64,000 nucleotides of DNA from the NCBI GenBank assembly GCA_028353405.1, contig JAOMOG010000005.1, positions 13,763 through 77,762 of the forward strand. The letters are read 5' to 3'. Shown piece by piece: positions 8,012 to 64,000 of the stretch (position 1 is the stretch's first letter; every line of letters starts with the position of its first letter). The notes under the pieces were generated by a model. The model did no database searches. It was not told where the DNA came from and worked only from the letters and a program-made list of their open reading frames with translations. The position numbers and the translations under genes were made by a program. The DNA comes from Candidatus Poseidoniaceae archaeon (GTDB taxonomy: Archaea > Thermoplasmatota > Poseidoniia > Poseidoniales > Poseidoniaceae).

Positions 8012-8788
8012 TTAAATGATTTTGTTATTGGGTTCAAAGGAAATTTCTCCTTTGTGAAGTGTATATGATATCCGCTGTGTGCCCTTTCCTTTGGATTTCT
8101 TACCAATAATTTCTATATGGCCAATCTCACCTAGTTGCTTGACATGTGTCCCAGCACATGGGCACAAATCAAGAGAATCACCGATTTTTACAACTCTTAA
8201 ATTATTGATAGAAGCAGGTAATAAATCCATGTTTGTTCGCTCTGGCGGCATTAGAGCATTAATTTCTGATCGTGTCATTTCTTCATCACTAACTGTGTGA
8301 TTTTCGTCGATTAAATCGTTGGTTAATTGGGTGAGTTGTTGTAACATTTCTTCATCGAATTTAATTGGGTTAAAATCAATTCTTGACCTTTCGGTATGAA
8401 TTTGATTACCTACTGTTCTAGCTGCATTAAAATTATCATATACAACTCCGCTAACCAAATGTTGGGCTGTATGCATGCGCATGTGTTCATATCTTCTGTG
8501 CCAGTCTATTTTACCTGTGATTTCGTCACCGACTTCCAATTGGTGGCCTTTTTCCAAATGGTGGTAAATATCATCGCGACCTCTTACTTCACTAACCGGT
8601 AGTGTCCCATTTGGACCATCCAGTGTTCCTGTATCCCAATTTTGTCCACCACCAAGTGGATAGAATAACGTTCTATCGAGAACTACTTTATCTTCTTCTG
8701 CAATGGTGACCTGGGCTGCAAAATTGGTTAAATATCCCGCTTCTATGTCCTCAAGGAATAGTTTCTCACTGCCCATGGTTTTATCCAA
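8012..8788 (-). CDS. alaX: AlaX-type alanyl-tRNA editing protein
   Basis: HTAQHL (HxxxH) and CPCAGTH (CxxxH), the zinc motifs of the AlaRS/ThrRS second additional (editing) domain. The ~258 aa size fits AlaX-M. Confidence 0.75.
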   Translation of the reverse strand: MDKTMGSEKLFLEDIEAGYLTNFAAQVTIAEEDKVVLDRTLFYPLGGGQNWDTGTLDGPNGTLPVSEVRGRDDIYHHLEKGHQLEVGDEITGKIDWHRRYEHMRMHTAQHLVSGVVYDNFNAARTVGNQIHTERSRIDFNPIKFDEEMLQQLTQLTNDLIDENHTVSDEEMTRSEINALMPPERTNMDLLPASINNLRVVKIGDSLDLCPCAGTHVKQLGEIGHIEIIGKKSKGKGTQRISYTLHKGEISFEPNNKII

Positions 8789-8818
8789 ACAGTGATAATT
8801 GAAGATGTTTTTTCTCTA

Positions 8819-9892
8819 TCAATGTGAAAGATCTTCAACTAGATTGGCATTGCCTTCGATGGTAGTATCAATCACAATGGATGGTGTTTTCCATGCATTT
8901 TTCAGAGCTACTGTTGAAGACCAGAGTGCGGGAATAAAGCCTACTTCTTCATATTCCCATCCACGTTCTTCCGCATACTGTTTGACCATTGGTGCTGCTT
9001 TTGGTAAGTTAAAATGTGATAATGCAGGGAGGAGATGGTGTTCGATTTGATAATCTAAACCAACGAAAAAGAAAGAGCCAATTCGTCCGAATTTTATACG
9101 CCGAGCAGTTTCTATTTGTAGTCGCCAGTTCTTATCATACTCAACTACAATCGGTCTTCCGGCGTGACCAACCAGGAAAACACCAGTTAGTATTGTTCCC
9201 ACTAAAGCCCACAGCAATACGTAGAATCCGACTACGGTTTGCCAAGGCATTCCAAGTTGAACTGGTAGAATTAGCCATAAGTAAAAGTGGAGCAAAACAA
9301 GGCCAGAGTCTGCCAGCCAAATCTTAGAAAACCTGTGGTTCTTTTTAGAAACAAATGGATGGCTAATAAGATACCAAATTCCATCCCAGCGGAGTAAATG
9401 TCCAACTAGGAGAGAGATTGGCCAAAATATCCATGCTTGTATATATCTTTGGAATATTTTTCTAATCGGGCCACTAGAATCATATTCTTCCTTGGTAAAG
9501 GTAAGCGGCCATGCATAAATATCTGGATCTTTGTCAATTACATTTGGATGGGCGTGGTGCTTGATGTTGTGCTTTACACGCCAATATTCCATCGACATAC
9601 CAGAGAATAGAGGGAATGCTAATCCAGCAAGACTTAGGTTGCCCCATTTGGAATTACAAGCTGAGGAATGTACTCCTTCGTGTGCAGTCATAGCCAATGT
9701 TGTAGCGAATAATGCTGTAATTGGTAAAATAATTAATCCTTGAATCAATGTAATTTGAGTATGGGTGTAAATTAGTCCACCCACTATTATGAAAAGAAAA
9801 ATTACTTTTGACCATGATTTACCTGCTGGCTTTGCAAGCAATCCTGCTGCATGAAGTTTGCGACGGAGGTCTGCCATTGGGTGTTCGGCCAT
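8819..9892 (-). CDS. membrane fatty-acid desaturase family protein
   Basis: Three His boxes (HEGVHS, HNIKHH, QIEHHL) with intervening TM segments. Confidence 0.7.
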   Translation of the reverse strand: MAEHPMADLRRKLHAAGLLAKPAGKSWSKVIFLFIIVGGLIYTHTQITLIQGLIILPITALFATTLAMTAHEGVHSSACNSKWGNLSLAGLAFPLFSGMSMEYWRVKHNIKHHAHPNVIDKDPDIYAWPLTFTKEEYDSSGPIRKIFQRYIQAWIFWPISLLVGHLLRWDGIWYLISHPFVSKKNHRFSKIWLADSGLVLLHFYLWLILPVQLGMPWQTVVGFYVLLWALVGTILTGVFLVGHAGRPIVVEYDKNWRLQIETARRIKFGRIGSFFFVGLDYQIEHHLLPALSHFNLPKAAPMVKQYAEERGWEYEEVGFIPALWSSTVALKNAWKTPSIVIDTTIEGNANLVEDLSH

Positions 9893-9979
9893 CTGAAATC
9901 AACTCAGTGGGGAGAATCCTCACTGCTTTGGCCCAAACCATGGGGGTTTTCAACATAGTGGGGGGTTAGTGTAGTAAAA

Positions 9980-10702
9980 TCAGTGATTGAGTGACTCAAA
10001 TAAAGACTCAGCATGGGTGATGCTGTTGTCAATGCTCATGTCTTTGAGGGCTCTTGGTGTTGCGTTTTGCATAATTTCAATCCAACCGTTTTTTGGCATC
10101 CATACTGGTTTTTCATCATACCAAAATTCACACAAACCATCATCGCGTATTAATTGAAGTGTTGGCTCTACTGTTGTATTTGGTCGTTGTTGGGAAAGAG
10201 CAAGTCCACCCCAATGATGGAAACGTTGTTTAGGGTTTGTTTGATCTTTAAATTCCATCACAGAGTGTTGTAGTTTTCCTGGTGCTTGTGCTGTATATTC
10301 TGTTAAATCAAACATTTTGTCACAAGTTATTATCCCATCTCCATTATTATTTCCTCCGATAGTAGAGATTTTTGTTTGGGATGATGATTGTTCAACACTA
10401 GTAACTCTACATCTTAACAAAACCTGAACACCTAGTTGAGCTGCCTTTATTGTTAAAATTTTGAATAACCATTCTCCGCGTAGGGCAAATCCATTTGAGT
10501 TTTGTAATATTTTTAAGTGGTTTATTTCGCCCTCTCCCAAATATTTCTGTAAACTTTCACGCCGCTCTACCCATCCTGGAATTACACAGGGAAAACCAAT
10601 TTCAGGATGAATGTCAATAAGTGTAACATTGTGTTCTTTGGCACAAAGAATAGATAAGATCAATCCTTCAATACTACCGCCGATAATCACTATATCAGAC
10701 AT
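9980..10702 (-). CDS. FAD/NAD(P)-binding flavoprotein (short)
   Basis: N-terminal Rossmann dinucleotide motif IVIIGGSIEGLILS. 240 aa. Overlaps the upstream ferredoxin gene by 8 nt. Confidence 0.5.
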   Translation of the reverse strand: MSDIVIIGGSIEGLILSILCAKEHNVTLIDIHPEIGFPCVIPGWVERRESLQKYLGEGEINHLKILQNSNGFALRGEWLFKILTIKAAQLGVQVLLRCRVTSVEQSSSQTKISTIGGNNNGDGIITCDKMFDLTEYTAQAPGKLQHSVMEFKDQTNPKQRFHHWGGLALSQQRPNTTVEPTLQLIRDDGLCEFWYDEKPVWMPKNGWIEIMQNATPRALKDMSIDNSITHAESLFESLNH

Positions 10703-10910
10703 TTAATTGCACCCCTTCAGGTTTTATGCTTAAAGCAAAAACGGGACACGAGGGGATACATAGTTCACAATGGGTGCATTTTTCTTCCTCGACAACAACC
10801 AATCTATCCTTTAATTCAATTATGTTAATTGGACATAAAGCTATACATGCAGCGCAACCATAACATAAATCTTCATCGATGATGAAAATATGGTCTGCTA
10901 TACGTGCCAT
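10695..10910 (-). CDS. 2x[4Fe-4S] ferredoxin
   Basis: Two CxxCxxCxxxCP clusters: CYGCAACIALCP and CTHCELCIPSCP. 71 aa. Confidence 0.75.
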   Translation of the reverse strand: MARIADHIFIIDEDLCYGCAACIALCPINIIELKDRLVVVEEEKCTHCELCIPSCPVFALSIKPEGVQLNV

Positions 10911-16132: not shown

Positions 16133-19069
16133 ATGAGTGAGCCCGGCGATGCAGGATGGATTGAGGTAAAGGGTGCTAGAACTCATAACCTACAAGACAT
16201 TGATGTCAAATTACCAAAGGGTCAATTTGTCGTTATTTCTGGAGTTTCCGGCTCGGGGAAGTCTAGTTTAGCGTTTGACACATTATACGCAGAAGGACAA
16301 CGACGTTATGTCGAAAGCCTCTCATCATATGCGCGACAGTTTATTGGGCAAATGAAAAAAGCAGATTGTGATTCAATCGAGGGCCTTTCTCCAGCAATTT
16401 CCATTGATCAAAAACAAGGCAGTCACAATCCACGTTCAACCGTTGCAACCGTCACTGAAATTCAAGATTACTTACGATTACTATGGGCTCGAATCGGCAA
16501 ACCACACTGTCCACAATGTGGTCGCGAAGTTGCTAGACGTACTGTTCAAGAGATTGTAGATGATATTATGTGGAATATGGAGGGCCATGCAGTTGCAGTT
16601 TGGAGTCCAATAGTACGTTCTAGAAAAGGAACTCATCTTGATTTATTCCGCCAGTTAATTGAGCAAGGATATCTTAATGGGAAAGTCAATGGACACGAAG
16701 TGGAATTTGAAAACCCTCCTCAATTGGATAAAAACTTCCGTCACGATATAGATGTTCGAATAGACCGCGTCACCTGTACCAAAGACCGCCGTCAGCGTCT
16801 GACAGAAGCCGTAGAATCTGCAATTAAACTAGGAGGTGGAACTACAGCGATCGAAAGTTTAAGAGAGCCACCTGAAGAAATGAAGCTCAGTGAAGGAACT
16901 CGCTCTCGCTTTACCAAAGAGGGAGAAACCGTTGCATGGTCGGAAGATTTTGCATGCCCAGATCATGGTGCTTTCATGCCCGAATTATCACCACGAGTGT
17001 TCTCATTCAATTCACCCCTGGGTGCATGTAGTTCTTGTCAGGGTCTCGGAGTACAACGTCAATTTAATCAGCAATTGATCATCGATAAACACGCTAGTGT
17101 TTCCAAAGGCTGTATCGTTCCATGGCGCCAATCTATGTCTCCATCATGGTATAGGAAATTAATGGAAAATACTTGCCAGCATTATGGGATATCTACAACA
17201 GCACCATTTGAACTATTGAATGATGATGAGAAAGACATACTTTTGTATGGTTCTGGCTCAACCATAATCCATTACAAATTCACTAGTGAATCCGGCTCAC
17301 AATACAACTACAGTAAACCATGGGAAGGAGTAATACCGCGCCTTCAAAAAACCTACACTGAAACAACCTCCGAACGAACCCGTTCACGCCTAATTTCCTG
17401 CATGACCGACTTAGATTGTTCGGAGTGTAATGGTGAAAAACTCAACGCAGCAGCTCGCTTTGTAACAGTGGGTGGTATTCGTCTTCCAGAAGTAAGTAAT
17501 TGTTCAGTTCACGATGCATTATCAGTGATTAGGTCATGGCAACCAGATGGAGAAGGAGCTCCAGAAGCCTTTGCCGACATGATGGAAATACTCGACGAAA
17601 GAAGCCTCTATATCGGTAAAGATATTTTGGCAGAAATAGAATCAAGATTAGGATTCCTCGATAGTGTGGGATTAGACTATCTAACTTTGGATAGGGGGGC
17701 CAATACGCTTTCAGGTGGCGAAAGCCAAAGAATCCGTCTTGCAACCCAAATCGGCTCAAGATTAACCGGGGTGATGTATGTTCTCGATGAACCCTCTATC
17801 GGTTTACATCAACGCGATAATGCGAGATTATTGGAAACACTACGAGATCTAAGTAACCTTGGAAATACTCTACTCGTAGTTGAACACGATGAAGAAACCA
17901 TCCGCCAAGCGGATTGGCTTTGTGACTTAGGCCCAGGTGCTGGACTAGAGGGTGGACGAGTCGTTGCTAATGGACCGCCTTTGGAGGTAATGGCCAATGA
18001 AGAATCTGTGACTCTTGCCTACCTTAGTGGTAGAAAATCAATACCAGTACCATCTTCGCGTAAGAAACCAACCAGTAAAATATTAGAAATCAAAGGAGCA
18101 ACTCACAATAATTTACAGTCGATTGATGTCCAGTTCCCATTGGGTTGTTTGACCGCAGTAACTGGCGTATCAGGTTCAGGAAAATCATCCTTAGTCTCTG
18201 GAATTTTAGCACCTGCGCTGAAACGAAGTTTACACAATGCCGATTCAGTCGTCGGTAGCCATCACAAAATAGAGGGGATGGAATATGTTGACAAAGCGAT
18301 CGTCATCAACCAAGCTCCAATCGGTAGAACGCCTCGTTCAAATCCCGCGACATATACCAAAGTGTTTGATGAGATTCGCATTTTATTTTCTAAGACAACA
18401 CTAGCCAAAGAACGCGGTTATACTCCTGGAACCTTTTCCTTCAACGTCAAAGGAGGCCGCTGTGAAGCCTGCAGGGGTGGTGGCGCAATAAAGTTAGAAA
18501 TGAATTTCTTACCAGACGTATGGATGACTTGTGATATTTGTGATGGCAAGCGCTATACTCGCGAATGTTTGGAAGTTACTTGGAAGGGTAAGACTATTCA
18601 TGATGTATTGAAAATGGCAGTCGGTGAAGCGGTCAATTTCTTTGAACATCACAAGAAGATACATCGTACATTGATGACACTCAGCACCGTCGGCCTTGAT
18701 TATATTAGATTGGGCCAACCTGCAACAACACTTTCCGGTGGAGAAGCGCAGAGAGTGAAACTTGCTAGTGAGTTAAGAAGAACTCCAAATAAGCATACTG
18801 TTTACATTCTTGATGAACCAACCACCGGCCTAGCATTTTCAGATGTTAAGAAATTAATTGAAGTATTATTTGAACTGAGAGACAAGGGCCATACCATCAT
18901 CGTCATCGAACATCATCTTGATGTGGTCAAGTCTAGCGACTGGGTTATTGATTTGGGTCCAGAAGGAGGAGAACGCGGTGGTCAATTACTTGTAAAAGGT
19001 ACACCGGAAGACATTGCAGCGCATAAAGAGAGTTTTACAGGGCAATATTTAGCACAGATGTTACAGTGA
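16133..19069 (+). CDS. uvrA: excinuclease ABC subunit A
   Basis: 978 aa. Two ABC modules (GVSGSGKSSLAFDTLYAEGQRRYVESLSSYARQF and a second GVSGSGKSSLV). Two LSGGE signatures and Cys4 zinc modules. Confidence 0.95.
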   Translation: MSEPGDAGWIEVKGARTHNLQDIDVKLPKGQFVVISGVSGSGKSSLAFDTLYAEGQRRYVESLSSYARQFIGQMKKADCDSIEGLSPAISIDQKQGSHNPRSTVATVTEIQDYLRLLWARIGKPHCPQCGREVARRTVQEIVDDIMWNMEGHAVAVWSPIVRSRKGTHLDLFRQLIEQGYLNGKVNGHEVEFENPPQLDKNFRHDIDVRIDRVTCTKDRRQRLTEAVESAIKLGGGTTAIESLREPPEEMKLSEGTRSRFTKEGETVAWSEDFACPDHGAFMPELSPRVFSFNSPLGACSSCQGLGVQRQFNQQLIIDKHASVSKGCIVPWRQSMSPSWYRKLMENTCQHYGISTTAPFELLNDDEKDILLYGSGSTIIHYKFTSESGSQYNYSKPWEGVIPRLQKTYTETTSERTRSRLISCMTDLDCSECNGEKLNAAARFVTVGGIRLPEVSNCSVHDALSVIRSWQPDGEGAPEAFADMMEILDERSLYIGKDILAEIESRLGFLDSVGLDYLTLDRGANTLSGGESQRIRLATQIGSRLTGVMYVLDEPSIGLHQRDNARLLETLRDLSNLGNTLLVVEHDEETIRQADWLCDLGPGAGLEGGRVVANGPPLEVMANEESVTLAYLSGRKSIPVPSSRKKPTSKILEIKGATHNNLQSIDVQFPLGCLTAVTGVSGSGKSSLVSGILAPALKRSLHNADSVVGSHHKIEGMEYVDKAIVINQAPIGRTPRSNPATYTKVFDEIRILFSKTTLAKERGYTPGTFSFNVKGGRCEACRGGGAIKLEMNFLPDVWMTCDICDGKRYTRECLEVTWKGKTIHDVLKMAVGEAVNFFEHHKKIHRTLMTLSTVGLDYIRLGQPATTLSGGEAQRVKLASELRRTPNKHTVYILDEPTTGLAFSDVKKLIEVLFELRDKGHTIIVIEHHLDVVKSSDWVIDLGPEGGERGGQLLVKGTPEDIAAHKESFTGQYLAQMLQ

Positions 19070-51990: not shown

Positions 51991-52319
51991 TCTCTAATTT
52001 CAGATTTATCTTCGCTTCTACGCACGCGTATTACGCCGATGAAAACTGCACCAATTACCGACAAGGTCATGATATTTGCAGCAACCATAGCAAAAGAATC
52101 TACAAGAATTCCATAAATTAGCCACATGGTTAGAGCGATTGCGACTACAGCAAATGTTGTTAGAGACAAACCATCATGACGTTTGTGAACCCATACTTGG
52201 ATGATTTGTGGAATCCAAGCAATAATTCCAATAACGCCGGCTAACAAGCCAAGTGCCTCAACCATCATAGTAGCCATGGGCGATGCCAATAGCCCAACCC
52301 AAATCAAACCTTGTCTCAC
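51981..52319 (-). CDS. PQ-loop / SemiSWEET-like 3-TM protein
   Basis: 112 aa, three TM helices, PQ motif (AWIPQIIQVW). Confidence 0.5.
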   Translation of the reverse strand: MRQGLIWVGLLASPMATMMVEALGLLAGVIGIIAWIPQIIQVWVHKRHDGLSLTTFAVVAIALTMWLIYGILVDSFAMVAANIMTLSVIGAVFIGVIRVRRSEDKSEIRDQL

Positions 52320-53260
52320 TTAGATCTTGGTTTCTCGCCCCATTCTGCGGGTGGCCTTGCAGCAAATACTTTGTTTACAGTGGCCCAATCTACCAATCGT
52401 CTTTCCTTTTCTCCTACAACATGCATTTCCAAGCATAAATCCTTTGCTAAAGTCGCTTCAATATTTTTTGTTCCATGAGATAATTTGACCCGACTTGGTC
52501 TTTTATTGAAGATAGAAAAGAAACCACGTCGATGAGTTGTTTGCACATTCAAATCTTCTTTTCGAAGCTTGAACCAATCATCTACGTCTGAACCTAATCC
52601 CAGTTGAATCAAATCTCCTTTCAAAGTTAATCCCCCATGTAATTCAATCTCATCCCAAGTTGAAAACCCTTCAACTGTTTGTAGGAGATCTTCATTCAAT
52701 TCACCAGGGATAGTCGACTCTAATATTTTTATAAAATCTGTTTCATTAACCATTTCCTGCTTAAAATTCTTAGGGATTTTTGGCCATTCTAGCCTTTGAT
52801 GAGTCATTGCAACGATGACTCTAACCTCTATGCTATCCGTTTGTTTTTGATTGATTCTCTGATGATGAATTTCGTTCAACATTCTCGCCTTTCTAGCGAT
52901 TCTCTCAGCGACCGTACTATGGTTGTGTTCGCTACCATTATTACGATATTGAACAAATTCTTCATCACTATTAATCTCAAATCTTCCAGCCCAATGTTTC
53001 TGTTCTACCACCAGAAGGGTATTGCCTCCAACGATAACCAAGTCAATTTCCCTTCTCCCTCCATCAGCAGGATCTGGAATGCGCACAGATGCAAAAACAT
53101 GCCACCCGTTTGCCTTTCCAGCAGCACGAGATAGTTTTTCTAAACGTAATTCAGACAATTCACCAGCGCGATGAGTATCGTCTGGAGGGTGCTTTTTACA
53201 GCGCGTTCTCCACCAATTAAATTGCTGTAGAAACGACAAAATAATCCCCCATAAAATCAT
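52316..53260 (-). CDS. NERD (nuclease-related domain) protein with uncharacterised C-terminal half
   Basis: RAGELSE...L....GWHVFASVRIP...REIDLVIVGGNTLLVVEQKHWAG fits the NERD pattern (E...D...ExK, PD-(D/E)xK-like). The N-terminal segment is hydrophobic. Confidence 0.55.
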   Translation of the reverse strand: MILWGIILSFLQQFNWWRTRCKKHPPDDTHRAGELSELRLEKLSRAAGKANGWHVFASVRIPDPADGGRREIDLVIVGGNTLLVVEQKHWAGRFEINSDEEFVQYRNNGSEHNHSTVAERIARKARMLNEIHHQRINQKQTDSIEVRVIVAMTHQRLEWPKIPKNFKQEMVNETDFIKILESTIPGELNEDLLQTVEGFSTWDEIELHGGLTLKGDLIQLGLGSDVDDWFKLRKEDLNVQTTHRRGFFSIFNKRPSRVKLSHGTKNIEATLAKDLCLEMHVVGEKERRLVDWATVNKVFAARPPAEWGEKPRSK

Positions 53261-55551: not shown

Positions 55552-56469
55552 TCAAAATGGCAATTCTTTATCGAGTCTCTCAGTCATCTCAAGATATCTA
55601 TCAGTATGTTCAGTATTTGGTAAATTGATAACAAATTGCCAATAACGCCATGCGGCAATTGAAAGAGTTGCCAAACGATGTAAGGCTGGTAAAGCATTAA
55701 TTTCAGCATCATTCAATTTCCTTATCGACTGATATCCAGATAGTAAAGAATCCCAGCGTTCAGATACCGGTTGACCATTTTCCCAACCAAATCCAACAAA
55801 TGTCATAACCAAATCGAAAGCCAAGACATCATAACATATTTCTTCAAAATCAAGTAATGATTTGACCTTTTCTTTAGTTCCGATGACATTATCGGGAAAT
55901 AAATCTCCGTGTATTATTCCCTTCGGCAAATCTTGACCTATGCTCTCAGCTAGTAGAGTGTTCTCAGTTTGTAGCATATTTAGAAAATCAGTCCAGCCAT
56001 GAGTTTCGTTTGCGATTGAAAATAATTTCTCAAAAAGGGTATTACCCATTGAGAAATTACTCTTTAGGCCCTTAGGGGGTTTTAGCAGATGTAAATTGGC
56101 TTGGATCATGCCAAGTGAGTATAGTGACGAATGATTGGATTCTAGCCACTGTCCTTCTACAAAGGGCAGAAGTGTCCATGCTAAGCCATCTTTAATCATC
56201 ATTAATTCACCATTCTTAAATTTGATAGGAGTGGCAGTCGGGACTCCATTATTAGCCAAATAAGATGTCATCGTTAGTAAATATTCAACTTCTTCTAGCG
56301 ATTGTTCATTCCATATCTTCAATACTAGTTTAGTATTATCTTTTAGAGTCAAAATGTAGTTGGAATTAGCCCAGCCTCCTGCTAATTTTTCAATACTAAG
56401 TAATTCTGACAGACCTGTGGCTTCAACAATCGCTGAAGCGTCATCAAGTGATACTTCTGTGTAAGCCAT
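55552..56469 (-). CDS. aminoglycoside phosphotransferase-fold kinase (homoserine kinase type II-like); its 5' 173 nt lie inside the left direct repeat
   Basis: IIHGDLFPDNV (Brenner HxDxxxxN) and LLDFEE (DFG-equivalent). 305 aa. Confidence 0.7.
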   Translation of the reverse strand: MAYTEVSLDDASAIVEATGLSELLSIEKLAGGWANSNYILTLKDNTKLVLKIWNEQSLEEVEYLLTMTSYLANNGVPTATPIKFKNGELMMIKDGLAWTLLPFVEGQWLESNHSSLYSLGMIQANLHLLKPPKGLKSNFSMGNTLFEKLFSIANETHGWTDFLNMLQTENTLLAESIGQDLPKGIIHGDLFPDNVIGTKEKVKSLLDFEEICYDVLAFDLVMTFVGFGWENGQPVSERWDSLLSGYQSIRKLNDAEINALPALHRLATLSIAAWRYWQFVINLPNTEHTDRYLEMTERLDKELPF

Positions 56470-56538
56470 ATAGTGCCCCTAACTCAATTTCTTTTTCTTT
56501 TTATCTATTGGATACGCCGATATTTACAGAGATGAACC
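56297..56538. repeat. left copy of 242-bp direct repeat (kinase gene 5' end plus upstream region)
   Basis: Aligned by eye with 62584..62825 at a constant offset of 6287 nt. In 56297-56470 there is one mismatch (56377 T vs 62664 C, synonymous Gly). Positions 56471-56538 are ~75-80% identical with two 1-nt indels. Confidence 0.9.
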
Positions 56539-56720
56539 TTTCTTGCTATGGGTGCCCCCTGAGTCAAACCACATAAAACAGAGGTAAAATGACTTTTTGC
56601 CGAATTGAATTCTTTAAAAGGAGTGATGTATTGTGGAGTTTTAGAGGGACAGGCCCATCCTAAAATAGAAACTTGAAAACACTACCCATTGTTTGAGATA
56701 TCAGAAAATACTAGATTATT

Positions 56721-59402
56721 ATGTCAATTGAAGTAACACTATTCGGGTCCGAGAAAAGGGCCATTCCGCATGGCATTAGTTTGTCTACGCTGCACCACAT
56801 GTGTGCGATAAGGGCAAGGATGTGTTGGGGTCTCTGGAACGAAGGATATCCGATTGCCAGAGTCTTAGACCACTATCCCTCCGGCGAGGAATATACTGTT
56901 ATTCTAGATCATGACTCTCACGCCCGCATCATCAAAAAAGATTTTGCTAGAATTCGTTTAACTGAATTTGACTACCCCAGGCCAACTGAATTAGCGACAT
57001 TTTTGATTGATTTGTTGAGATTGGAAAAAACAGGATTAATAGGTCGTTTCAGCATTTCTTATTCCCAATATGATTTCAGTTTTGAACGGGATAAATATAT
57101 AGGTATCCGTTATGTTTTAATTCCCGATTTAAGTGACATACAAGAAGACTCTGTTGAATTGACTGATCTGTTATCTCTTGCAAAGATAGCAGCAAAGATT
57201 TGTCTGCCTAATCAGGTCAATTCATTCTCGCGATGTAAATCTATTGGAGAGATTCTATCTCTGATTGCAGGTTTGACCTTTCGTAAAGACAATACAACTG
57301 GGGCCGGTAAATTGATTATCAATCTTGATGAGGAAAATCACTCCATGTGGGTTGGATATAACAGCGAGAGATTTAGAATCCGAGCCAATCAACATGGCTA
57401 TTTTATACCGTCAAAGAAGCCTGATCCCAAAGCACATGGTATCGAAATCCCGATTCAAATTTCCCCATATCCCGACCCTAATCTTGTGAATCCTTGGATT
57501 GAAAGAGCGCTTTGTTGGCAAGGGAAAACAAAAATCTGGAATGAGGGTAGTTCTGATGGTACTATTCGCAACTTGGTCGGAACGCTTGCAGCTGAATTTC
57601 GTCATGCTGAAAATTCCTGCTACAAATATGAGGTCGAATCTAATTATGATCTCAAGAAGGGGATTGCCACCATTAGAATCGAGCGTCGTGATGGGAATGC
57701 CAATGCGCATGATTTGTGGGAAGCAGCGGTACGTAACAGAGAAATGGATGTCGCTTTGAATTCATCCGAACGCGTATTTGAATGGAAAGATGGTGATATT
57801 TGGAAGTTGGAAAAAATCCACGAAAAAGATCCGTTCCTTCTAACGATTAAGTCCTCTCCAAAGAACGCCAAATTATCAGATTCAGGATATCTGAAACTGG
57901 CGAGTGTCCCGCAGAGGGCATTGATGACGAGGAAGGAGAAACTAATCAGGTCGGGAGTACGAAAAGAATCGATACGAAACCTACTTCAGCTACAGGTCAA
58001 TACGAGAAATTCGGATGAATGGAGATTGTCTCAAAGACGTAACATCATGGCTCTTCAGGGACCACCTGGGACTGGAAAAACATGGACCGCCTGTCAGATT
58101 GTCAAAGATATTCTCAGGGAAAACCCCTGTGCTAGGATTTTGGTAAGTTCAAAGGAACATCTAGCTCTTGATCATCTTTCGAACCGCATCCGAGAAGCAT
58201 TGGACAATTCTTTTGACGTAGTTCGAATTAATCATCGTGAATCTGATGTAGAACGCGACATTGATTCAGAGGTTTTGCCTGAAGCCATCACCAATCGAAT
58301 CCTCAAGGATATCTCAATTTCCGAGAAGAATATGCGAGAAATCGGTAAGTTGGCTACATGGGTTGAGGACTTGGCTACTCGAACAGCCTCCGTTGTTTGC
58401 ACCACTACCTTAGACCGTACGATGGAGAATTTACAACGTTCTGGCGAGACATTTGATTTCACAATCATAGAAGAAGCAGGGAAATCCTACCCTTCTGAGT
58501 TGATTGGCCCCGTGTCTATTTCAATGAACACCCTGATAATTGGTGACCATCTTCAACTCCCGCCATTTGAATTGCGTGAAATACAGAAAGCGATTGAAGA
58601 TTGTATCAATGATGGGTTGAATAATTGGGATGACCGAGACTTCAGAAATAGTATTGAACGTGAATTGGTAGAGGTGTCAACACACCATGCGAAGCGTAAA
58701 GAATTCAATCCAACTAGTATTTCTGATCAGATTGAAGCATGGCTTCAGCCCTTCCAAACAATTCATATGATTACCAAGGGAGATGTACTCTCCAATCAAT
58801 GGCGGATGTTCCAATCACTATCCGATTCAGTTGGTGAGATATTCTATGGAAAGTCATTCTCCATAAAGAAAATAAATAGTGTTGAGGATGATCAACTACC
58901 AGGTGTCTTTGGAGAATATGCTGAGAGACTTCTAATGGCGGATATTCCAAACGGTACAGAGAGTAATCGCACCAAATCATATTGCAACAAGGCCGAAGCC
59001 AAGTTTGCCGCCAAGCATCTTGAGGAACTTCTCAACAGTGGATGTGATGCCATCGCCATTACTCCATACAAGGGGCAAGTTGATGAAATTCGTGAAAATC
59101 TCCCGAAGAAATATCGCGACAATGTCAGAACAGTAGACGGTTTCCAAGGAAAGGAAGCAGATTTTATTCTCCTCAGTCTTGTACGCAGCAACAAGCGTAC
59201 AGGATCATCCCGGAGATGGGGTTTCTTCCGTGACCCCCGCCGAATCAACGTAGCCCTATCTCGCGCTAGAGAAGGGCTTGTTGTGATTTCATCCATAGAT
59301 CATATCGAGAATACTGATTGGGCGGAGGATGAAGGGCAACTATCAGAGTTCCTTGAATCGGTTCGTAATCAAGGAAAAATAATTCAGGAGGTGAAAAATT
59401 GA
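56721..59402 (+). CDS. Upf1-like SF1B helicase (COG1112-type core) with 446-aa unrecognised N-terminal region
   Basis: Walker A GPPGTGKT (58059-58082, aa 447-454); Ia ILVSSKEHLALDHL; II IIEEAGK; III GDHLQLPP (58542-58565); V TVDGFQGKEADFILLSLVRSN; VI DPRRINVALSRAREGLVVIS. The motifs are near-canonical Upf1/DNA2/NAM7. Confidence 0.85.
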   Translation: MSIEVTLFGSEKRAIPHGISLSTLHHMCAIRARMCWGLWNEGYPIARVLDHYPSGEEYTVILDHDSHARIIKKDFARIRLTEFDYPRPTELATFLIDLLRLEKTGLIGRFSISYSQYDFSFERDKYIGIRYVLIPDLSDIQEDSVELTDLLSLAKIAAKICLPNQVNSFSRCKSIGEILSLIAGLTFRKDNTTGAGKLIINLDEENHSMWVGYNSERFRIRANQHGYFIPSKKPDPKAHGIEIPIQISPYPDPNLVNPWIERALCWQGKTKIWNEGSSDGTIRNLVGTLAAEFRHAENSCYKYEVESNYDLKKGIATIRIERRDGNANAHDLWEAAVRNREMDVALNSSERVFEWKDGDIWKLEKIHEKDPFLLTIKSSPKNAKLSDSGYLKLASVPQRALMTRKEKLIRSGVRKESIRNLLQLQVNTRNSDEWRLSQRRNIMALQGPPGTGKTWTACQIVKDILRENPCARILVSSKEHLALDHLSNRIREALDNSFDVVRINHRESDVERDIDSEVLPEAITNRILKDISISEKNMREIGKLATWVEDLATRTASVVCTTTLDRTMENLQRSGETFDFTIIEEAGKSYPSELIGPVSISMNTLIIGDHLQLPPFELREIQKAIEDCINDGLNNWDDRDFRNSIERELVEVSTHHAKRKEFNPTSISDQIEAWLQPFQTIHMITKGDVLSNQWRMFQSLSDSVGEIFYGKSFSIKKINSVEDDQLPGVFGEYAERLLMADIPNGTESNRTKSYCNKAEAKFAAKHLEELLNSGCDAIAITPYKGQVDEIRENLPKKYRDNVRTVDGFQGKEADFILLSLVRSNKRTGSSRRWGFFRDPRRINVALSRAREGLVVISSIDHIENTDWAEDEGQLSEFLESVRNQGKIIQEVKN

Positions 59403-62233
59403 GTGGGGCTAGCATTATTCTCGAGATTCCAGTAGAGATTCTGCACACTGTTTTCAGAGTGGAGAAAGATGACCCTCTAAAACCAATCATGGATGTCATG
59501 AAATCAAACAAGATGATTGAATCAAACTCACAATCAGTGCATCGATTAGATGCACTCTCTCGATCATCTTCATCAATCTCCAAGATTAATGAATTCCCCA
59601 CACCTGTAATGAGGGATTTATGGAAAGGAAAATATTGGACAATGAGGGAAAAAAGCCTCAGTCTTGATAGTGATATTACGGGTTCTATACATCAATTAGA
59701 GCCGATTCAAAGGTTAGATCTGAATAAACATGAAGGTAAAGTCAAGGATATGGCCGCCCCGTTTCTGGGATGGTTAGCAGGCAAATCACAAATAAATAGA
59801 AAGGATATTCTGAGTCATGTGCGACTTGAGAGTTTGGAGACATTTGGTGAAACCATCTTTTTGAGAACAAAGATATCGCAGAAAGAAGACCGAGCAGGGC
59901 GAAAATTCTGGGTCTATGAAGAAGGGCCTTTTAAGCAATTGATAGGAGATTATATTGATCAAGTACCCGGCTTTGAAATCGATGAGCGGAATGCGACAGA
60001 AAAGATGCATGAGTGGCCATATTCCCCCGAGGTAATGGCTCTTAGAGAACTTAGAAAGAAGGTTAAATTGTCCAAAATTTCAGATGCTAAATTGAGGGGG
60101 AATAAGAATAATTTACAATTAAAGAAAAAGTCTACCAAAGACCAAAATGTAGTTCTTAAAGAGGCAAAAAGTATTCTAAAATCTATCATGGACCAAATAA
60201 ATGAAGATATGCGCCCCCGCCTCAATGAGGTGAAACAAATAGTTGGGTTTCGCCAGGATATGTGGGACGCTGCACAAGTGGTCATCAACTCGGCGGAGAG
60301 GCGAGTATTTGTTCTAACTTCGTTCAGTAACAAAAAATTCTTAGGAGATGTGGCAGATATGTTGGCGGAGGCTTCTGAAAGGAGTAGCCCTGAAATCCTA
60401 CTATCCTTCGGTGAGCCCGACCGTGGCCGTTCTCCAGAGGACATTGAAAAGACGAATCGATATATCTCTACTCTATCTAAGGATAAACGACTCAATTTGA
60501 AAGGTGGAGTTTCTGCGATTCCCACTCATTCCAAGATAATCGTATCCGACACAGGTATGATTTTCCTCTGTTCATGTAACCTTTTTAGCGGTTCTTTTGA
60601 TTCCGGTGTTCTCGAATCGGGACTATTAATCAAGGATGCAGAATGTGCAAGAACACTTATTGAAGCAGTAGATGATGAAAGATGGGTCCCTGAAACTATT
60701 AAAAAACAGTTTGGAGAGTTGTTTTCGCGAATCAAGGATATCAAGGACGACAAATATGGGCTTTTTGAATTAGGAAACAAAATTTCCGAAATAAAAACAA
60801 ATATCAATAAAGGTGAAATTTGGTATGCAATTCCTAAGTTAGAGCGAATGTTATTGGAGATTTCAGAAAGACCGACTTGGTCGTTGATTAGAACACTTGA
60901 GCACCGCCCATTTATGGCGGATTGCATCAAGAAATTCGAGGATCGTTTGGTTATGGGGAGCGATGGATTGAGAAGTAATGGTTTAGATAAAGAATCTATC
61001 AGCGGGATTGTCAAACGTGCATCTAAGAATAATGCTACAGTTCAAATTTGGTGGGGTCGGCATGCACCAAAATCGAAAAGTTATGACGAGGCTGATGCTA
61101 GGGGCAGAAAAGAAGCAAAGAACCGCCTAGAACAATTAAGAGGCCACAAAGGATTATTCTTGATTCCAAGAACTTCCAATGAACCAATGGAAACACATGC
61201 TAAGATGTTTATTGTTGATGATTTAAGGCTGATGATTACTTCGGATAATACACTCTCATTCGGCGATACAGAAACAGAAAGAGGCGATGCGGGTGAATTA
61301 GGAATCGTGGTTGATCACCCGCGATTGGCCATCCAAACAAGAGGTTGTATGGAATTATGGCTTCCAGACGATGCTGTGGTCCCACGAGATAACACGAAAT
61401 GGTGGTCTCTTCTCGGCGAAGGGGTAGGCATGCAAACAGATAATCCGTTTCAAAAAGTTCCACTTATCAATACATTAGATTCGCTGATTGAACGAGTCGA
61501 ATCTAGTAACTTCTTGAAGTCTCGTTGGGAAAGAGAAGTAGAATCCGGTTCGAATGAGATTGAAATATTGAATAAATTGACATTAGGTAATAAATTCGGA
61601 ATTTATTCCATCGCTGAATCCGTGAACTCAGCAGGAAACAAATCACGCTTGTCTGAGGAACAAATAGAAGAAGCTGTGATATCCTTGGCAAAGAAGAAAA
61701 GATGGAATATATCAATCGATGATTCGATTGATAATGCATTGATATCTGCACTAAGCCAATATAAATCAAAGTCTGGAAAACGTCCACATTTCATAATACA
61801 AGGTGGAAGGAATTACGAATTATCTTACAAATCTAAAGAATTACATATGCAATTTGATGAAGATTTTGTTTTACCATATCTAATAAAACACCGAGAGGAA
61901 GTCATCGATGAGTTAAATTCTCTTTTCGGATTCGAAATTGAAGTTTCATGGAGCCTCACAAGCAGTGGTAAAATGATGAATGATTTCTCCAACGCATTCA
62001 GCATCGAGGAAGAAATTACCCCGAAAATATGGGCGGAATCCCTTATTCAATTCATGAATGATCCAGATATTTTTGAATTCATTTCTGACCCATATAATCG
62101 AATGGTTACATCGGAACCTAAATTAAAACTCGGTAAAGGTGAGTTGGCCATATTTGTGGATGAGGAGTGCTATGAGTTCATTGAATGGGAGAAGCGAAAG
62201 GGTCAATTGTATGTACGAAGGAGGAGGGAATGA
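59399..62233 (+). CDS. double-HKD phospholipase-D-superfamily protein (predicted nuclease) with large extra N- and C-terminal regions
   Basis: HKD-1 HSKIIVSD...CSCNLFSG (60527-60550, aa 377). HKD-2 HAKMFIVDD...ITSDNTLSFG (61196-61219, aa 600). No TM segments. TTG start overlaps the helicase TGA (TTGA). GGAGGTGA at 59387-59394. Confidence 0.8.
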   Translation: MSGASIILEIPVEILHTVFRVEKDDPLKPIMDVMKSNKMIESNSQSVHRLDALSRSSSSISKINEFPTPVMRDLWKGKYWTMREKSLSLDSDITGSIHQLEPIQRLDLNKHEGKVKDMAAPFLGWLAGKSQINRKDILSHVRLESLETFGETIFLRTKISQKEDRAGRKFWVYEEGPFKQLIGDYIDQVPGFEIDERNATEKMHEWPYSPEVMALRELRKKVKLSKISDAKLRGNKNNLQLKKKSTKDQNVVLKEAKSILKSIMDQINEDMRPRLNEVKQIVGFRQDMWDAAQVVINSAERRVFVLTSFSNKKFLGDVADMLAEASERSSPEILLSFGEPDRGRSPEDIEKTNRYISTLSKDKRLNLKGGVSAIPTHSKIIVSDTGMIFLCSCNLFSGSFDSGVLESGLLIKDAECARTLIEAVDDERWVPETIKKQFGELFSRIKDIKDDKYGLFELGNKISEIKTNINKGEIWYAIPKLERMLLEISERPTWSLIRTLEHRPFMADCIKKFEDRLVMGSDGLRSNGLDKESISGIVKRASKNNATVQIWWGRHAPKSKSYDEADARGRKEAKNRLEQLRGHKGLFLIPRTSNEPMETHAKMFIVDDLRLMITSDNTLSFGDTETERGDAGELGIVVDHPRLAIQTRGCMELWLPDDAVVPRDNTKWWSLLGEGVGMQTDNPFQKVPLINTLDSLIERVESSNFLKSRWEREVESGSNEIEILNKLTLGNKFGIYSIAESVNSAGNKSRLSEEQIEEAVISLAKKKRWNISIDDSIDNALISALSQYKSKSGKRPHFIIQGGRNYELSYKSKELHMQFDEDFVLPYLIKHREEVIDELNSLFGFEIEVSWSLTSSGKMMNDFSNAFSIEEEITPKIWAESLIQFMNDPDIFEFISDPYNRMVTSEPKLKLGKGELAIFVDEECYEFIEWEKRKGQLYVRRRRE

Positions 62234-62574
62234 TGTCAAGAGGTTCGGGCAAAGGGGGATCATCGCGTGGTCGAGGAAATTCGCGAAGACAGTCAATGTC
62301 CAAATCGCAAAAAGACCAACGATCTAATAGTATGAATCCCAACAACAATACCAACAAAAGTGGAAATGATAATCGTTCCAATCAGATGAATCCGAACAAC
62401 CCTGCTCACGATTCTTCAAGGCAATCCTCTACAAGTTCAGGTCGATGGAGTCAGAGAATGGATGCGAAGAGTGCATCACGAATTCAAACTCACGCTGATA
62501 AAACCGACACAAATCAAGATTTCAAGGCTAGAGCACAATCTGCAGCTGAAAAGAATGAAGATGAAAATAGTTGA
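62233..62574 (+). CDS. small basic Asn/Ser-rich low-complexity protein
   Basis: MSRGSGKGGSSRGRGNSRR..., two RSNxMNPNN motifs, and a C-terminal ASRIQTHADK...ARAQSAAEKN. TGATG overlap with the PLD gene stop. GGAGG at 62223-62227. Alternative ATG at 62230. Confidence 0.5.
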   Translation: MSRGSGKGGSSRGRGNSRRQSMSKSQKDQRSNSMNPNNNTNKSGNDNRSNQMNPNNPAHDSSRQSSTSSGRWSQRMDAKSASRIQTHADKTDTNQDFKARAQSAAEKNEDENS

Positions 62575-62583
62575 TGAAGCTTC

Positions 62584-62756
62584 AGCGATTGTTCATTCCA
62601 TATCTTCAATACTAGTTTAGTATTATCTTTTAGAGTCAAAATGTAGTTGGAATTAGCCCAGCCCCCTGCTAATTTTTCAATACTAAGTAATTCTGACAGA
62701 CCTGTGGCTTCAACAATCGCTGAAGCGTCATCAAGTGATACTTCTGTGTAAGCCAT
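62584..62756 (-). pseudogene. orphaned 5' fragment (58 codons) of the kinase-fold gene, still carrying its start codon and upstream region
   Basis: The predicted peptide MAYTEVSLDD...KIWNEQSL is identical to residues 1-58 of 55552..56469. The frame then reads into island sequence, giving the 80-aa chimeric ORF 62514..62756. Confidence 0.8.
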
Positions 62757-62919: not shown

Positions 62920-64000
62920 ATGAAGAAGAGCATATTATTGAGCTTGCTATTATTAATGTCTGTATTTGTGGGTTGTCTTGGCGATAATGACCCGGTTCTT
63001 GGAATCGGTGGTCAAGTCGATGGCTCTAAAGAGGGCGGAACCTTTAATTGCACTCTACCAAACACAATTTCGACATTCCAATTGGGAACTATTGATGACT
63101 GGGATCCTAATATCGCAGAGTCTCCATTGCCCAATGTTCCTACTAACCTAATGGGAATTGTATTTGTGTCGAAAGATACCGACAGTGTATTTAACGAAGC
63201 TCCTGTTGTACATCATTTCAGTAATCTTGGCGGACAATTAATTGTTGATGCCAAGATAACAATTCAGACCCGTACTATTACTGGCATGACTCCGAATTCA
63301 GATATTCTTCAGTTGATGTTCCACAATGATATGAATCTATACCCAACTTGGAATATTCCGATCGGGCAAACAGCAGATTCTCCATATGGTATGACTGAAG
63401 TTCTGCATCTAGATGAGTTACCAACGAGTGGAGCAGGCGACCTATCTACATTAGTCGCTGGCACTACAAGCCTAACTTCAGCACTAAACACACTCGGATA
63501 TATCGACATAGTCGTTTCAAACGCTCAGCAGGTAGATTATGTTGAACTTGAGTTATGTGTTCGACCCCCACCCCCTCCTTCAGGAGGTTCCTTTGATTGC
63601 CCTGCACCGCACTCAAGTTTCAGTTTCTTTTTAGGGACAAATGACAATTGGGACCCTGCTATTGCAGAATCCCCACTACCCATAGTCACCTCAAACCTTT
63701 TGCAAATTGCAACATATACGAAGGGTACTGATGATGATATGAATGAAGCATCAGTTACTCATCAGTTTGGTAGCATAGCGGCATTTATAATTGTAGATGC
63801 CTCATTGACAATCCAAACACGAACAATTCCAACCGAGGCTCCAAATATTGCCAATCTAATTTTATTATTTAGTGATGACATGACGGCATATCCTCCTTGG
63901 GAGATTTCAATTGGACAAGCAGCAGATGCTCCATCAACGCTGACTGAAACATTACATCTTGATGAATTGCCTACAAGTGGAATGGGAGATTTGTCATTAT
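62920..64000 (+). CDS. predicted lipoprotein with tandem ~183-aa repeat domains (3' end beyond window)
   Basis: My own translation; it is absent from the ORF track because no stop falls in the window. MKKSILLSLLLLMSVFVGC is a lipobox. Repeat 1 starts at 63034 (GGTFNCTLPNT...) and repeat 2 at 63583 (GGSFDCPAPHS...). Shared motifs: WDPxIAESPLP, TIQTRTI, LHLDELPTSG. Confidence 0.6.
   Translation, partial: MKKSILLSLLLLMSVFVGCLGDNDPVLGIGGQVDGSKEGGTFNCTLPNTISTFQLGTIDDWDPNIAESPLPNVPTNLMGIVFVSKDTDSVFNEAPVVHHFSNLGGQLIVDAKITIQTRTITGMTPNSDILQLMFHNDMNLYPTWNIPIGQTADSPYGMTEVLHLDELPTSGAGDLSTLVAGTTSLTSALNTLGYIDIVVSNAQQVDYVELELCVRPPPPPSGGSFDCPAPHSSFSFFLGTNDNWDPAIAESPLPIVTSNLLQIATYTKGTDDDMNEASVTHQFGSIAAFIIVDASLTIQTRTIPTEAPNIANLILLFSDDMTAYPPWEISIGQAADAPSTLTETLHLDELPTSGMGDLSL

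Follow-up and report, generated by a model that had tools for sequence, protein, structure and literature searches.

A region of ~6 kb (56721-62574) in a 64,000-nt stretch of contig JAOMOG010000005.1 (assembly GCA_028353405.1; the whole stretch analyzed is hereafter called the window) raises the question whether adjacent genes for a Upf1-like helicase and a phospholipase D (PLD)-superfamily protein form a defence system in a Poseidoniaceae (Marine Group II) archaeon and, if so, whether this system belongs to a known type. The point of reference is Mokosh, whose definition was given together with mutant data for its helicase and PLD parts by Millman et al. (preprint 10.1101/2022.05.11.491447). 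The data presented here make it likely that the region is an intact, mobile, three-component defence cassette of the Mokosh family, combining a helicase, a putative PLD nuclease and a small third protein.

Three intact, overlapping, same-strand open reading frames (ORFs) fill the region (Table 1). At the junction between genes 1 and 2, TTGA (59399-59402), the TTG start codon (59399-59401) overlaps the TGA stop codon (59400-59402), and GGAGGTG is found 6 nt upstream of the TTG. At the junction between genes 2 and 3, TGATG (62231-62235), a TGA stop codon (62231-62233) overlaps an ATG (62233-62235), just downstream of another GGAGG-type motif (GGAGGAGGG). The TTG start of gene 2 is supported by the conservation of the resulting N-terminus, MSGASIILEIPVEIL. 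The leader (56547-56720) is kept in cassette copies from unrelated contexts and probably carries the cassette's own promoter; no consensus RNA structure was predicted in it, the poor alignment making this a weak test. The gene, junction, motif and repeat features described here are not explicable by chance. An earlier note on this DNA had read the region as a three-gene operon with overlapping stop and start codons after GGAGG-type motifs, encoding a helicase with a near-canonical Upf1/DNA2-type superfamily 1B (SF1B) motif set and no Ser/Thr-kinase motifs, a protein with two HxKxxxxD (HKD) motifs 223 amino acids (aa) apart and no transmembrane helices, and a basic, Asn/Ser-rich protein of ~113 aa. 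All of this was borne out by the analyses below, as was the view that the coupled third gene sets the locus apart from known Mokosh systems.

Gene 1 carries the complete SF1B motif set, namely GPPGTGKT at 447-454 (including K453), IIEEAG at 582-587, GDHLQLPP at 608, TVDGFQGKE at 804 and NVALSRA at 843, and matches the Pfam domains AAA_11 and AAA_12. Compared with solved structures, the profile of its family matches Upf1/NAM7, IGHMBP2, Sen1, Aquarius and DNA2 (best E 1.7e-50). The best PADLOC model is MkoA (PDLC03920; E 9.3e-101, 336.8 bits). This match is limited to aa 297-882, corresponding to positions 465-1098 of the 1112 positions of the profile, and includes aa 297-440 just before the helicase core. 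For the kinase-bearing MkoA proteins of loci L183 and L184, the match to this profile extends over positions 8-1099 (~545 bits), whereas the kinase-less relatives in L178, L180 and L182 match it, like gene 1, in the helicase part only.

In gene 2, HSKIIVSD at 377 is followed by CSCN and HAKMFIVD at 600 by SDN, and both HKD motifs are conserved across 34 homologues. Its best PADLOC model is MkoB (E 1.8e-21, 75 bits), the match spanning both HKD halves (aa 238-645), followed by several DrmC models. By hhalign, the gene 2 family matches the MkoB partner of kinase-type MkoA with a probability of 97.8%. Compared directly, gene 2 and the MkoB of L183 (680 aa) show no significant similarity, the L183 protein matching the front of the MkoB profile only. 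Genes 1 and 2 each match MkoC, the type II protein, more weakly. The PADLOC comparison had been proposed beforehand as a check, with a new Mokosh subtype or a distinct system as the possible outcomes; MkoA and MkoB being by far the best matches, it comes down on the side of the Mokosh family.

Both parts of the broad Mokosh definition are found, that is a Upf1-like SF1B helicase and, in an overlapping frame, a two-HKD protein with a two-lobed model and a predicted nuclease activity. The helicase (COG1112/Upf1-like) and the PLD-family HKD protein are encoded, as in type I, by separate, adjacent and co-oriented genes. The type I helicase protein starts with a kinase domain, for which a rare domain of 300 aa is substituted here; further differences are an extra conserved small gene, which accompanies the pair in every complete kinase-less locus examined, the length of gene 2 (944 aa, against a 610-position MkoB profile) and the host, a marine archaeon. 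With type II (MkoC, for example E. coli YjhR) the locus shares the two catalytic modules. There, however, these are fused in one polypeptide with neither kinase nor small partner, while here and in all relatives they are separate ORFs, joined by a third. Because the kinase of type I and the fusion of type II are both absent and the broad definition applies, we file the locus as a putative new three-gene, kinase-less subtype of the Mokosh family, neither type I nor type II, with a presumed role in defence. Standard tools would probably label it Mokosh type I. A full-text literature search of limited coverage returned no "Mokosh type III" or "Mokosh-like" system. The archaeal host had been counted as a further difference from Mokosh; the host is indeed a Poseidoniaceae archaeon, the UvrA and PurL proteins of the window belonging to 90%-identity clusters whose named members are from metagenome-assembled genomes of Candidatus Poseidoniaceae or Poseidoniales. 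An archaeal host is not new in itself, however, as Mokosh has been reported in Asgard archaea (PMC11291487). A survey of archaeal defence likewise includes Mokosh, without singling out the lineage of the window (PMC12988326).

What stands in place of the kinase? A Pfam scan gave no domain in the first ~300 aa of gene 1 or of 30 relatives, and no Pkinase or PK_Tyr_Ser-Thr match in gene 1 or 31 family members. Comparison of the N-terminal domain with the N-termini of kinase-type MkoA by hhalign gave a probability of 0.6%, the same test recovering the N-termini of two more distant kinase-less groups at 93% and 91%. In the family alignment, no conserved Lys or Asp matches the VAIK, HRD or DFG motifs. 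Since the domain profile finds only 35 representative clusters among 1.84 billion, the domain is rare; its full-length members are all 877-1011 aa long, it is always located at the front of a Upf1-like helicase of the gene 1 type, and no match was found in plasmids. An AlphaFold2 model of aa 1-300 (predicted local distance difference test, pLDDT, 85; predicted template modelling score, pTM, 0.85) was compared with structure libraries using Foldseek. No significant neighbour was obtained in the PDB (best E 0.1, template modelling score, TM, at most 0.28), and in BFVD two poxvirus L3-like virion proteins were matched at E ~4e-4 with TM at most 0.31. In both libraries the weak matches are strikingly enriched in kinases.

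This enrichment bears on the alternative that survives best, namely that the locus is an ordinary type I Mokosh whose kinase has decayed into an unrecognisable pseudokinase, the added third gene being the sole real difference. Protein kinases and aminoglycoside phosphotransferases make up nearly all of the top 50 weak PDB matches, viral protein kinases account for ~20 of the top 50 in BFVD, and the order of elements in aa 47-136 (three strands, a helix and two strands) resembles a kinase N-lobe. On the other hand, TM is at most 0.31 with rmsd values of 6-17 Å, the best BFVD matches are the virion proteins rather than kinases, and the C-terminal half of the domain is beta-rich, unlike a kinase C-lobe; hhalign against real MkoA kinase regions, the Pfam scan (0 of 31 members) and the missing catalytic residues all argue in the same direction. 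We regard this explanation as possible, without favouring it. We conclude that the N-terminal domain does not function as a kinase, and it may be what remains of one after strong decay.

The start of gene 1 is placed differently in the public record, where the product is apparently 860 aa long (P0002) and begins at Met34, the affected stretch being 56721-56819. This annotated start is probably too far downstream and the 893-aa start better, because residues 1-33, including LHHxCAIRAR, are conserved in the family. Several gene 1 relatives (853 aa) are shortened alike at the start.

Gene 3 encodes a protein composed mostly of Ser, Asn, Arg, Gln, Gly and Lys (isoelectric point 10.9; Ser 20%, Asn 14%, Arg 11%), from which Leu, Val, Tyr and Cys are absent. 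It has an arginine-glycine (RG)-rich N-terminus, two DNRSNQMNPNN motifs and the C-terminal motif SASRIQTHADKTDTNQDFKARAQSAAEKN; the corresponding family-wide features are SRGSGxGGSSRGxGNSRR, two copies of DNRSNQ(L/M)NPNN and a C-terminal SASRIQSHADKTxxNQDFKARAQSAAEKN. Its homologues (n = 78, mostly 111-115 aa) come from the same marine sources as the relatives of the helicase and the PLD protein. Despite its low complexity, gene 3 is a real gene under strong purifying selection, with a ratio of nonsynonymous to synonymous substitution rates (dN/dS) of 0.07-0.10 against three cassette copies, compared with 0.13-0.22 for gene 1 and 0.135 for gene 2. No family was found for gene 3 in Pfam, NCBIfam or PADLOC, even at permissive thresholds, and no match in phage genomes. 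A likeness of the C-terminal motif to plant seed-maturation-protein repeats was not supported by Pfam scans and is not claimed.

A gene 3 homologue follows the PLD gene also in clades with a helicase 39% (L178) or 29% (L180, L181) identical to gene 1. The homologue in L182 keeps the NPNN part only, and in Archangium gephyra a 75-aa homologue is located directly upstream of MkoA-like and MkoB-like genes, the gene order differing from that in the window. For a census, hidden Markov models (HMMs), with four distant sequences among the set used to build them, were scanned against all ORFs of 259 fetched loci, and raw counts were taken irrespective of kinship. Every complete locus that carries the new N-terminal domain (20 of 20) has gene 3, as do L182 and Archangium; over all complete kinase-less loci the count is 22 of 22, against none of the 24 loci with a kinase-type helicase N-terminus. 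Among the loci examined, gene 3 appears to be specific to the kinase-less branch, in Archaea and Bacteria alike. It is a component not included in existing descriptions of Mokosh.

A different explanation takes gene 3 for the labile inhibitor of a toxic helicase-nuclease in a selfish addiction or toxin-antitoxin-like module, antiviral protection being a by-product. Such a module would suit a small, disordered, conserved protein that is translationally coupled to a nuclease gene and strictly linked to the helicase-PLD pair, in a cassette that changes sites without a recombinase of its own. However, the usual partner of an antitoxin gene, either following it or tightly paired with it, is a gene for a small toxin, not for 200 kDa of helicase plus nuclease, and related two-gene Mokosh systems work without a small third partner (10.1101/2022.05.11.491447). 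Moreover, gene 3-like motifs also occur by viperin genes without a nuclease. We consider this explanation quite unlikely.

The viperin link emerges from the surroundings of distant relatives, near which pVip, a viperin-associated kinase-like gene (VakA), NucC-like, SNF2-type and PDC-S01 genes are found. On Methanomethylovorans hollandica plasmid pMETHO01 (NC_019972.1 ~101767-101868; L260 8986-9087), a 33-aa ORF, MTKGDAARIQSHADRTGKNQDFKARAQSAADKK, comprises nothing but the C-terminal motif of gene 3. It shares bases with the stop codon of a gene of 473 aa, and 180 bp farther downstream follows a viperin gene (PADLOC pVip 1.3e-78); PDC-S01 is close by as well. The Archangium gephyra locus (GCA_049060025.1; L259 5012-16228) has the order SNF2-type helicase, 75-aa gene 3-like gene, MkoA-like ORF (8329-10866, overlooked by the gene caller), MkoB-like PLD-FGE-sulfatase fusion, VakA, HAD, uracil phosphoribosyltransferase (UPRTase) and radical SAM. 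The trio in L182 is flanked by a similar AAA_17-HAD-UPRTase module, and the module of VakA, HAD, UPRTase and radical SAM occurs in both L182 and L259. Because it is found by viperin and VakA-module loci, the gene 3 motif is tied to defence loci more broadly.

Three further observations concern small genes of this kind and their surroundings. The 33-aa ORF of pMETHO01 is not in the PLSDB gene table. In IMG/VR contig 3300045988_178485, classed as viral (L218 12919-13140), a protein of ~73 aa with two NPNN motifs (…ANLHNPNNKAY…DNRANQMNPNH…) is encoded ~1.5 kb downstream of an SF1 helicase gene; it could belong to an unrelated family with the same repeat or be a viral gene 3 counterpart. In the most distant kinase-less clade (L179-L181, ~180-1474), a conserved 221-aa gene without family match directly precedes the helicase gene and could form a four-gene unit with the trio. 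A phage-integrase-like gene is located at the edge of L179.

Is the cassette a fixed part of the genome? The homologues of the three genes stem almost exclusively from marine metagenomes and assembled genomes labelled "Methanobacteriota" or "Poseidoniales". One of 185,579 GTDB species representatives carries a close cassette copy, and no close relative of the cassette was found in IMG/VR. By BLASTN, the stretch shared with copies in unrelated contexts extends from 56547/56555 to 62580, and the cassette thus fills the space between the flanking repeats. The left cassette end is conserved, while the right end exists in a short or a long form; the window copy has neither tail, lacking the 45-85 bp found after the gene 3 stop codon in other copies. 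For comparison of the insertion site, 80 metagenome loci with relatives of the adjoining APH gene were fetched, and those with at least 81% identity were used. In nine close relatives, an AsnC-type regulator gene directly adjoins the APH gene and the cassette is absent. It is present at the APH site in L095 (96-98% identical to that of the window) and in L012 (fetched separately), and L094 has other genes there. Set against empty L098, filled L012 shows the cassette inserted between …CTACGG and CTAGCC…, and no target-site duplication is evident. Besides the APH site, the cassette occurs in at least six contexts, among them AhpC/peroxidase genes (L001), rpS3Ae (L002, L174-L177) and further ones (L003, L004, L005, L007).

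No integrase, transposase or other recombinase gene was found inside the cassette, and no flanking direct repeats of at least 25-30 bp in L001, L002, L004, L005, L012 and L013. A tRNA-targeted island was rejected, as there is no tRNA and no Rfam family anywhere in the 64,000-nt window. A circular element, suggested by the many metagenome contigs of ~6 kb, was rejected as well; these contigs show no terminal overlap, and assembly breaks at the cassette borders are more likely. In L003, a long-read contig full of small ORFs of unknown function, 69-nt tandem repeats in eight or more copies (16673-17489) lie ~1.5 kb downstream of a frameshifted cassette copy.

These distributions weigh on the idea of a housekeeping module for RNA surveillance or decay, a Upf1-plus-nuclease analogue rather than an immune system. 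The helicase is Upf1-like, the left neighbours are core genes and one lineage keeps the cassette beside rpS3Ae, all of which would suit such a role. Against it, nine close relatives have no cassette at the site in question, copies occur in at least six contexts but are nearly absent from the GTDB species representatives, and the N-terminal domain family comprises 35 representative clusters only. We consider a housekeeping role very unlikely. The single-copy, syntenic pattern that the earlier note had linked with it is not seen; the genes co-occur everywhere, and their distribution is patchy and not syntenic.

Turning to the enzymology of gene 2, its AlphaFold2 model (pLDDT 83) has a two-lobed PLD fold. 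In Foldseek it matches the single-chain, two-lobed enzymes PssA, vaccinia F13, PLD1/2, Streptomyces PLD and PLD4 (E down to 4.6e-11; target-normalised TM 0.4-0.64, ~13% identity), which confirms a pseudo-dimeric fold; a search against PDB sequences gave no match. The fold match alone does not separate a nuclease from a lipid enzyme; the grouping with MkoB and DrmC and the strict helicase link favour a nuclease. That gene 2 is a lipid-metabolising phosphatidylserine or cardiolipin synthase with an incidental helicase neighbour is the least probable of all readings, for although PssA of E. coli and Haemophilus and the classical phospholipases D rank first among its structural matches and a Joint Genome Institute (JGI) source labels some homologues synthase-like, the likeness is at fold level and biased by solved single-chain two-HKD structures being mostly lipid enzymes, sequence profiles match only MkoB and DISARM DrmC (NCBIfam giving DrmC alone), no hydrophobic segment is found (maximum Kyte-Doolittle 19-residue mean 1.42), some variants carry a nucleic-acid-binding insert, and the helicase linkage is strict across domains of life. 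A clustering with these synthases, raised beforehand as a result that would speak against a nuclease, was not observed.

Gene 2 variants share a ~770-aa core and come in three forms. One is extended, like the window copy, by 170 aa at the C-terminus, another carries an S1/cold-shock-like insert ahead of the second HKD motif (PF22707, 2.6e-6), and the third has neither. The insert form is represented by L005 2845-5337 and relatives (P0215, P0219, P0233 and others), PLD proteins of 826-835 aa with an S1/cold-shock-like oligonucleotide/oligosaccharide-binding (OB) fold (Rho_RNA_bind 1e-4), paired with helicases 82% identical to gene 1. This variant suggests recent module shuffling and a nucleic-acid substrate.

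The window copy is the only one among the cassette loci compared with a long flanking repeat (~245 bp, ~94% identical, at 56293-~56540 and 62580-~62826). The earlier note had described the operon as the sole cargo of an insertion bracketed by direct repeats. The repeats are real and the three genes are the sole cargo, but the repeats prove to be a duplicated APH fragment and not the usual insertion-site repeats. In APH codons 1-58 the two copies differ from each other at one site and from every other locus at ~10 sites. The differences between the copies are concentrated in the non-coding part, where copy 1 resembles cassette-linked loci and copy 2 empty-site loci. Copy 2 then runs into a different flank with a lipoprotein-like gene, and at the right junction the truncated cassette end is fused inside the APH fragment with a few bases of microhomology. 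The repeat looks like a recombination scar, the duplicated 5' end of the neighbouring gene. A fragment or circle in which the intergenic region connected the APH 5' end to the cassette would have recombined into an empty site via APH homology, by a Campbell-type or a homology-facilitated illegitimate route. The pattern does not fit transposition or att-site recombination, and the repeat does not look like a target-site duplication. Chimeric assembly was rejected, as the junction microhomology of a few bases is too short for a k-mer-based mis-join; with no long k-mer shared at the junction, mis-assembly is unlikely. The pseudo-ORF at 62514-62756 is a by-product of the duplication and no gene. 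Just upstream of the intact APH start (56470-56476), copy 1 reads ATAGTGC, and copy 2 and all related loci ACAATAT; these four changes within six bases probably lie in the ribosome-binding site or the 5' leader of the APH copy that is functional.

How might the three proteins act together? We propose that a single transcript from the conserved leader would give three proteins by coupled translation, which would assemble into one complex. The gene 1 protein would be an ATP-driven 5'->3' sensor and motor that loads on viral RNA or on single-stranded replication intermediates. The gene 2 protein would serve as a metal-independent nuclease effector, cutting nucleic acid via a covalent phospho-histidine intermediate; this step follows the hypothesis of the Mokosh authors and the mutant data for types I and II (10.1101/2022.05.11.491447). 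By homology, both the helicase ATP site and the PLD active site would be needed for protection. The patchy, mobile distribution of the cassette and the defence genes around distant relatives speak indirectly for such a protective role. Complex formation has been reported for nuclease-NTPase defence pairs (10.1101/2025.07.10.664194). The regulation or recruitment that type I owes to its kinase may be taken over jointly by the gene 3 protein and the gene 1 N-terminal domain, which is non-catalytic and could be what is left of a dead kinase; this is suggested by the occurrence of the kinase and gene 3 in complementary sets of loci. The basic RG-rich half of gene 3 would probably bind nucleic acid, and its conserved C-terminal helix would probably dock on a partner.

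A bolder version of this proposal holds that gene 3 represents an unrecognised class of tiny defence-island proteins with an RG tail, NPNN repeats and the ~30-residue motif ARIQSHADxTGxNQDFKARAQSAA. Together with the dead N-terminal domain, it would stand in for kinase signalling in the kinase-less branch as a subunit that recruits RNA, works like a switch or forms condensates, and would be the prokaryotic equivalent of the disordered RG/RGG cofactors of eukaryotic Upf1/MOV10-type helicases. As it stands we hold this version to be doubtful, and the likeness to the eukaryotic cofactors in particular is speculation.

Several points weigh against a mobile defence cassette acting in this way, among them the lack of the Ser/Thr kinase that defines type I. 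One lineage keeps the cassette beside the rpS3Ae gene in several samples, and this stable position could reflect vertical inheritance. The left neighbours in the window are housekeeping genes and no defence island. The complementarity of kinase and gene 3 was counted on fetched loci only, kinship being ignored, and the putative role of gene 3 is drawn from its co-occurrence and composition. The solved structures nearest to gene 2 are the lipid enzymes PssA and PLD1/2, at fold level and ~13% identity, and ~240 N-terminal and ~300 C-terminal residues of gene 2 fall outside assigned domains. The earlier note had stated that both large proteins carry hundreds of residues that could not be assigned; in gene 1, the N-terminus without a Pfam match is now recognised as a rare domain. 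Finally, the Mokosh mechanism is itself still a hypothesis, and type I Mokosh has not yet been purified (10.1101/2025.07.10.664194).

Beyond Mokosh, the pairing of an SF1B RNA helicase with an HKD nuclease resembles MOV10L1 and Zucchini/PLD6 of animal PIWI-interacting RNA (piRNA) biogenesis, to which Cury et al. likened the Mokosh helicase and PLD (10.1101/2022.12.12.520048), and recalls Upf1 in nonsense-mediated decay, Upf1/NAM7 being the nearest solved helicases. Zucchini is a homodimer anchored in the membrane, each chain carrying one HKD motif, whereas gene 2 encodes a soluble protein with both motifs in a single chain, and unlike the piRNA pair the locus has no Argonaute or PIWI partner. 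With DISARM DrmC, Gabija, Hachiman and Azaca it shares the combination of an NTPase or helicase sensor and a nuclease effector in one operon, DrmC being the next-best family for gene 2 after MkoB. The helicases of those systems are of the SF2 or UvrD-like type, whereas that of the present locus is SF1B Upf1-like; in addition, no methylase or other DISARM gene is present here, and DrmC is short with a single HKD motif.

Table 1. Positions in the window of the cassette genes, motifs, leader, flanking repeats and adjoining APH gene.
Feature	Position	Strand	Remarks
Gene 1	56721-59402	+	893 aa; MkoA-like Upf1-type SF1B helicase
Gene 2	59399-62233	+	944 aa, TTG start; MkoB-like PLD-superfamily protein with two HKD motifs
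Gene 3	62233-62574	+	113 aa; basic, disordered protein; alternative ATG in frame at 62230
N-terminal domain of gene 1 (aa 1-296)	56721-57608	+	Occupies the position of the type I MkoA Ser/Thr kinase
Walker A motif GPPGTGKT (K453)	58059-58082	+	Invariant in the family
First HKD motif of gene 2 (H377, K379, D384)	60527-60550	+	
Second HKD motif of gene 2 (H600, K602, D607)	61196-61219	+	
Variable C-terminal extension of gene 2 (aa 771-944)	61709-62230	+	Absent in 750-aa and 830-aa variants (alignment)
Non-coding cassette leader	56547-56720	+	Conserved; left end ...TACCCTCTGAGTCAAACCACATAAAAC
APH-family phosphotransferase gene, intact (305 aa)	55552-56469	-	Pfam APH E 3.9e-27; marks the insertion site
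Direct repeat, copy 1	56293-~56540	.	APH codons 1-58 and ~70 nt upstream; distal end like cassette-linked loci
Direct repeat, copy 2	62580-~62826	.	Truncated APH 5' fragment and upstream region; distal end like empty-site loci
Pseudo-ORF (80 aa)	62514-62756	-	First 58 APH codons (repeat copy 2), then antisense into the end of gene 3

The genes to the left of the cassette encode FtsY, orotidine monophosphate (OMP) decarboxylase, glutamine synthetase, a nuclease-related domain (NERD) protein, a HAD hydrolase, a geranylgeranyl-reductase-like protein and the APH-family phosphotransferase. The NERD gene (52316-53260, minus strand), three genes left of the cassette, is present in L012 too and seems to be part of the conserved flank, not of the cassette. 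On the right, a gene running off the window (62920-64000, plus strand) encodes a secreted or lipoprotein-like product, MKKSILLSLLLLMSVFVGC…, in which a PPPPP linker accompanies at least two tandem domain repeats of ~220 aa. For this gene neither a Pfam match nor a counterpart among the 80 related APH loci was found, so that the region to the right of the insertion site is also variable between strains.

Mokosh is widespread and its mechanism unsolved. A natural kinase-less variant with a constant small subunit points to the regulatory, replaceable part of the system, and the kinase-less trio offers a different, possibly simpler, complex for biochemistry. Recurring both by viperin genes and by Mokosh-like genes of distant organisms, the gene 3 motif provides a cheap new marker for surveys of defence islands. 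Testable leads are the small third protein, which is obligatory, the replacement of the kinase domain and the link between the gene 3 motif and viperin loci. Poseidoniales are among the most abundant archaea of the surface ocean, uncultured and reportedly with few recognised defences; the presence or absence of the cassette at one site between strains is evidence of virus-driven variation in their flexible genome.

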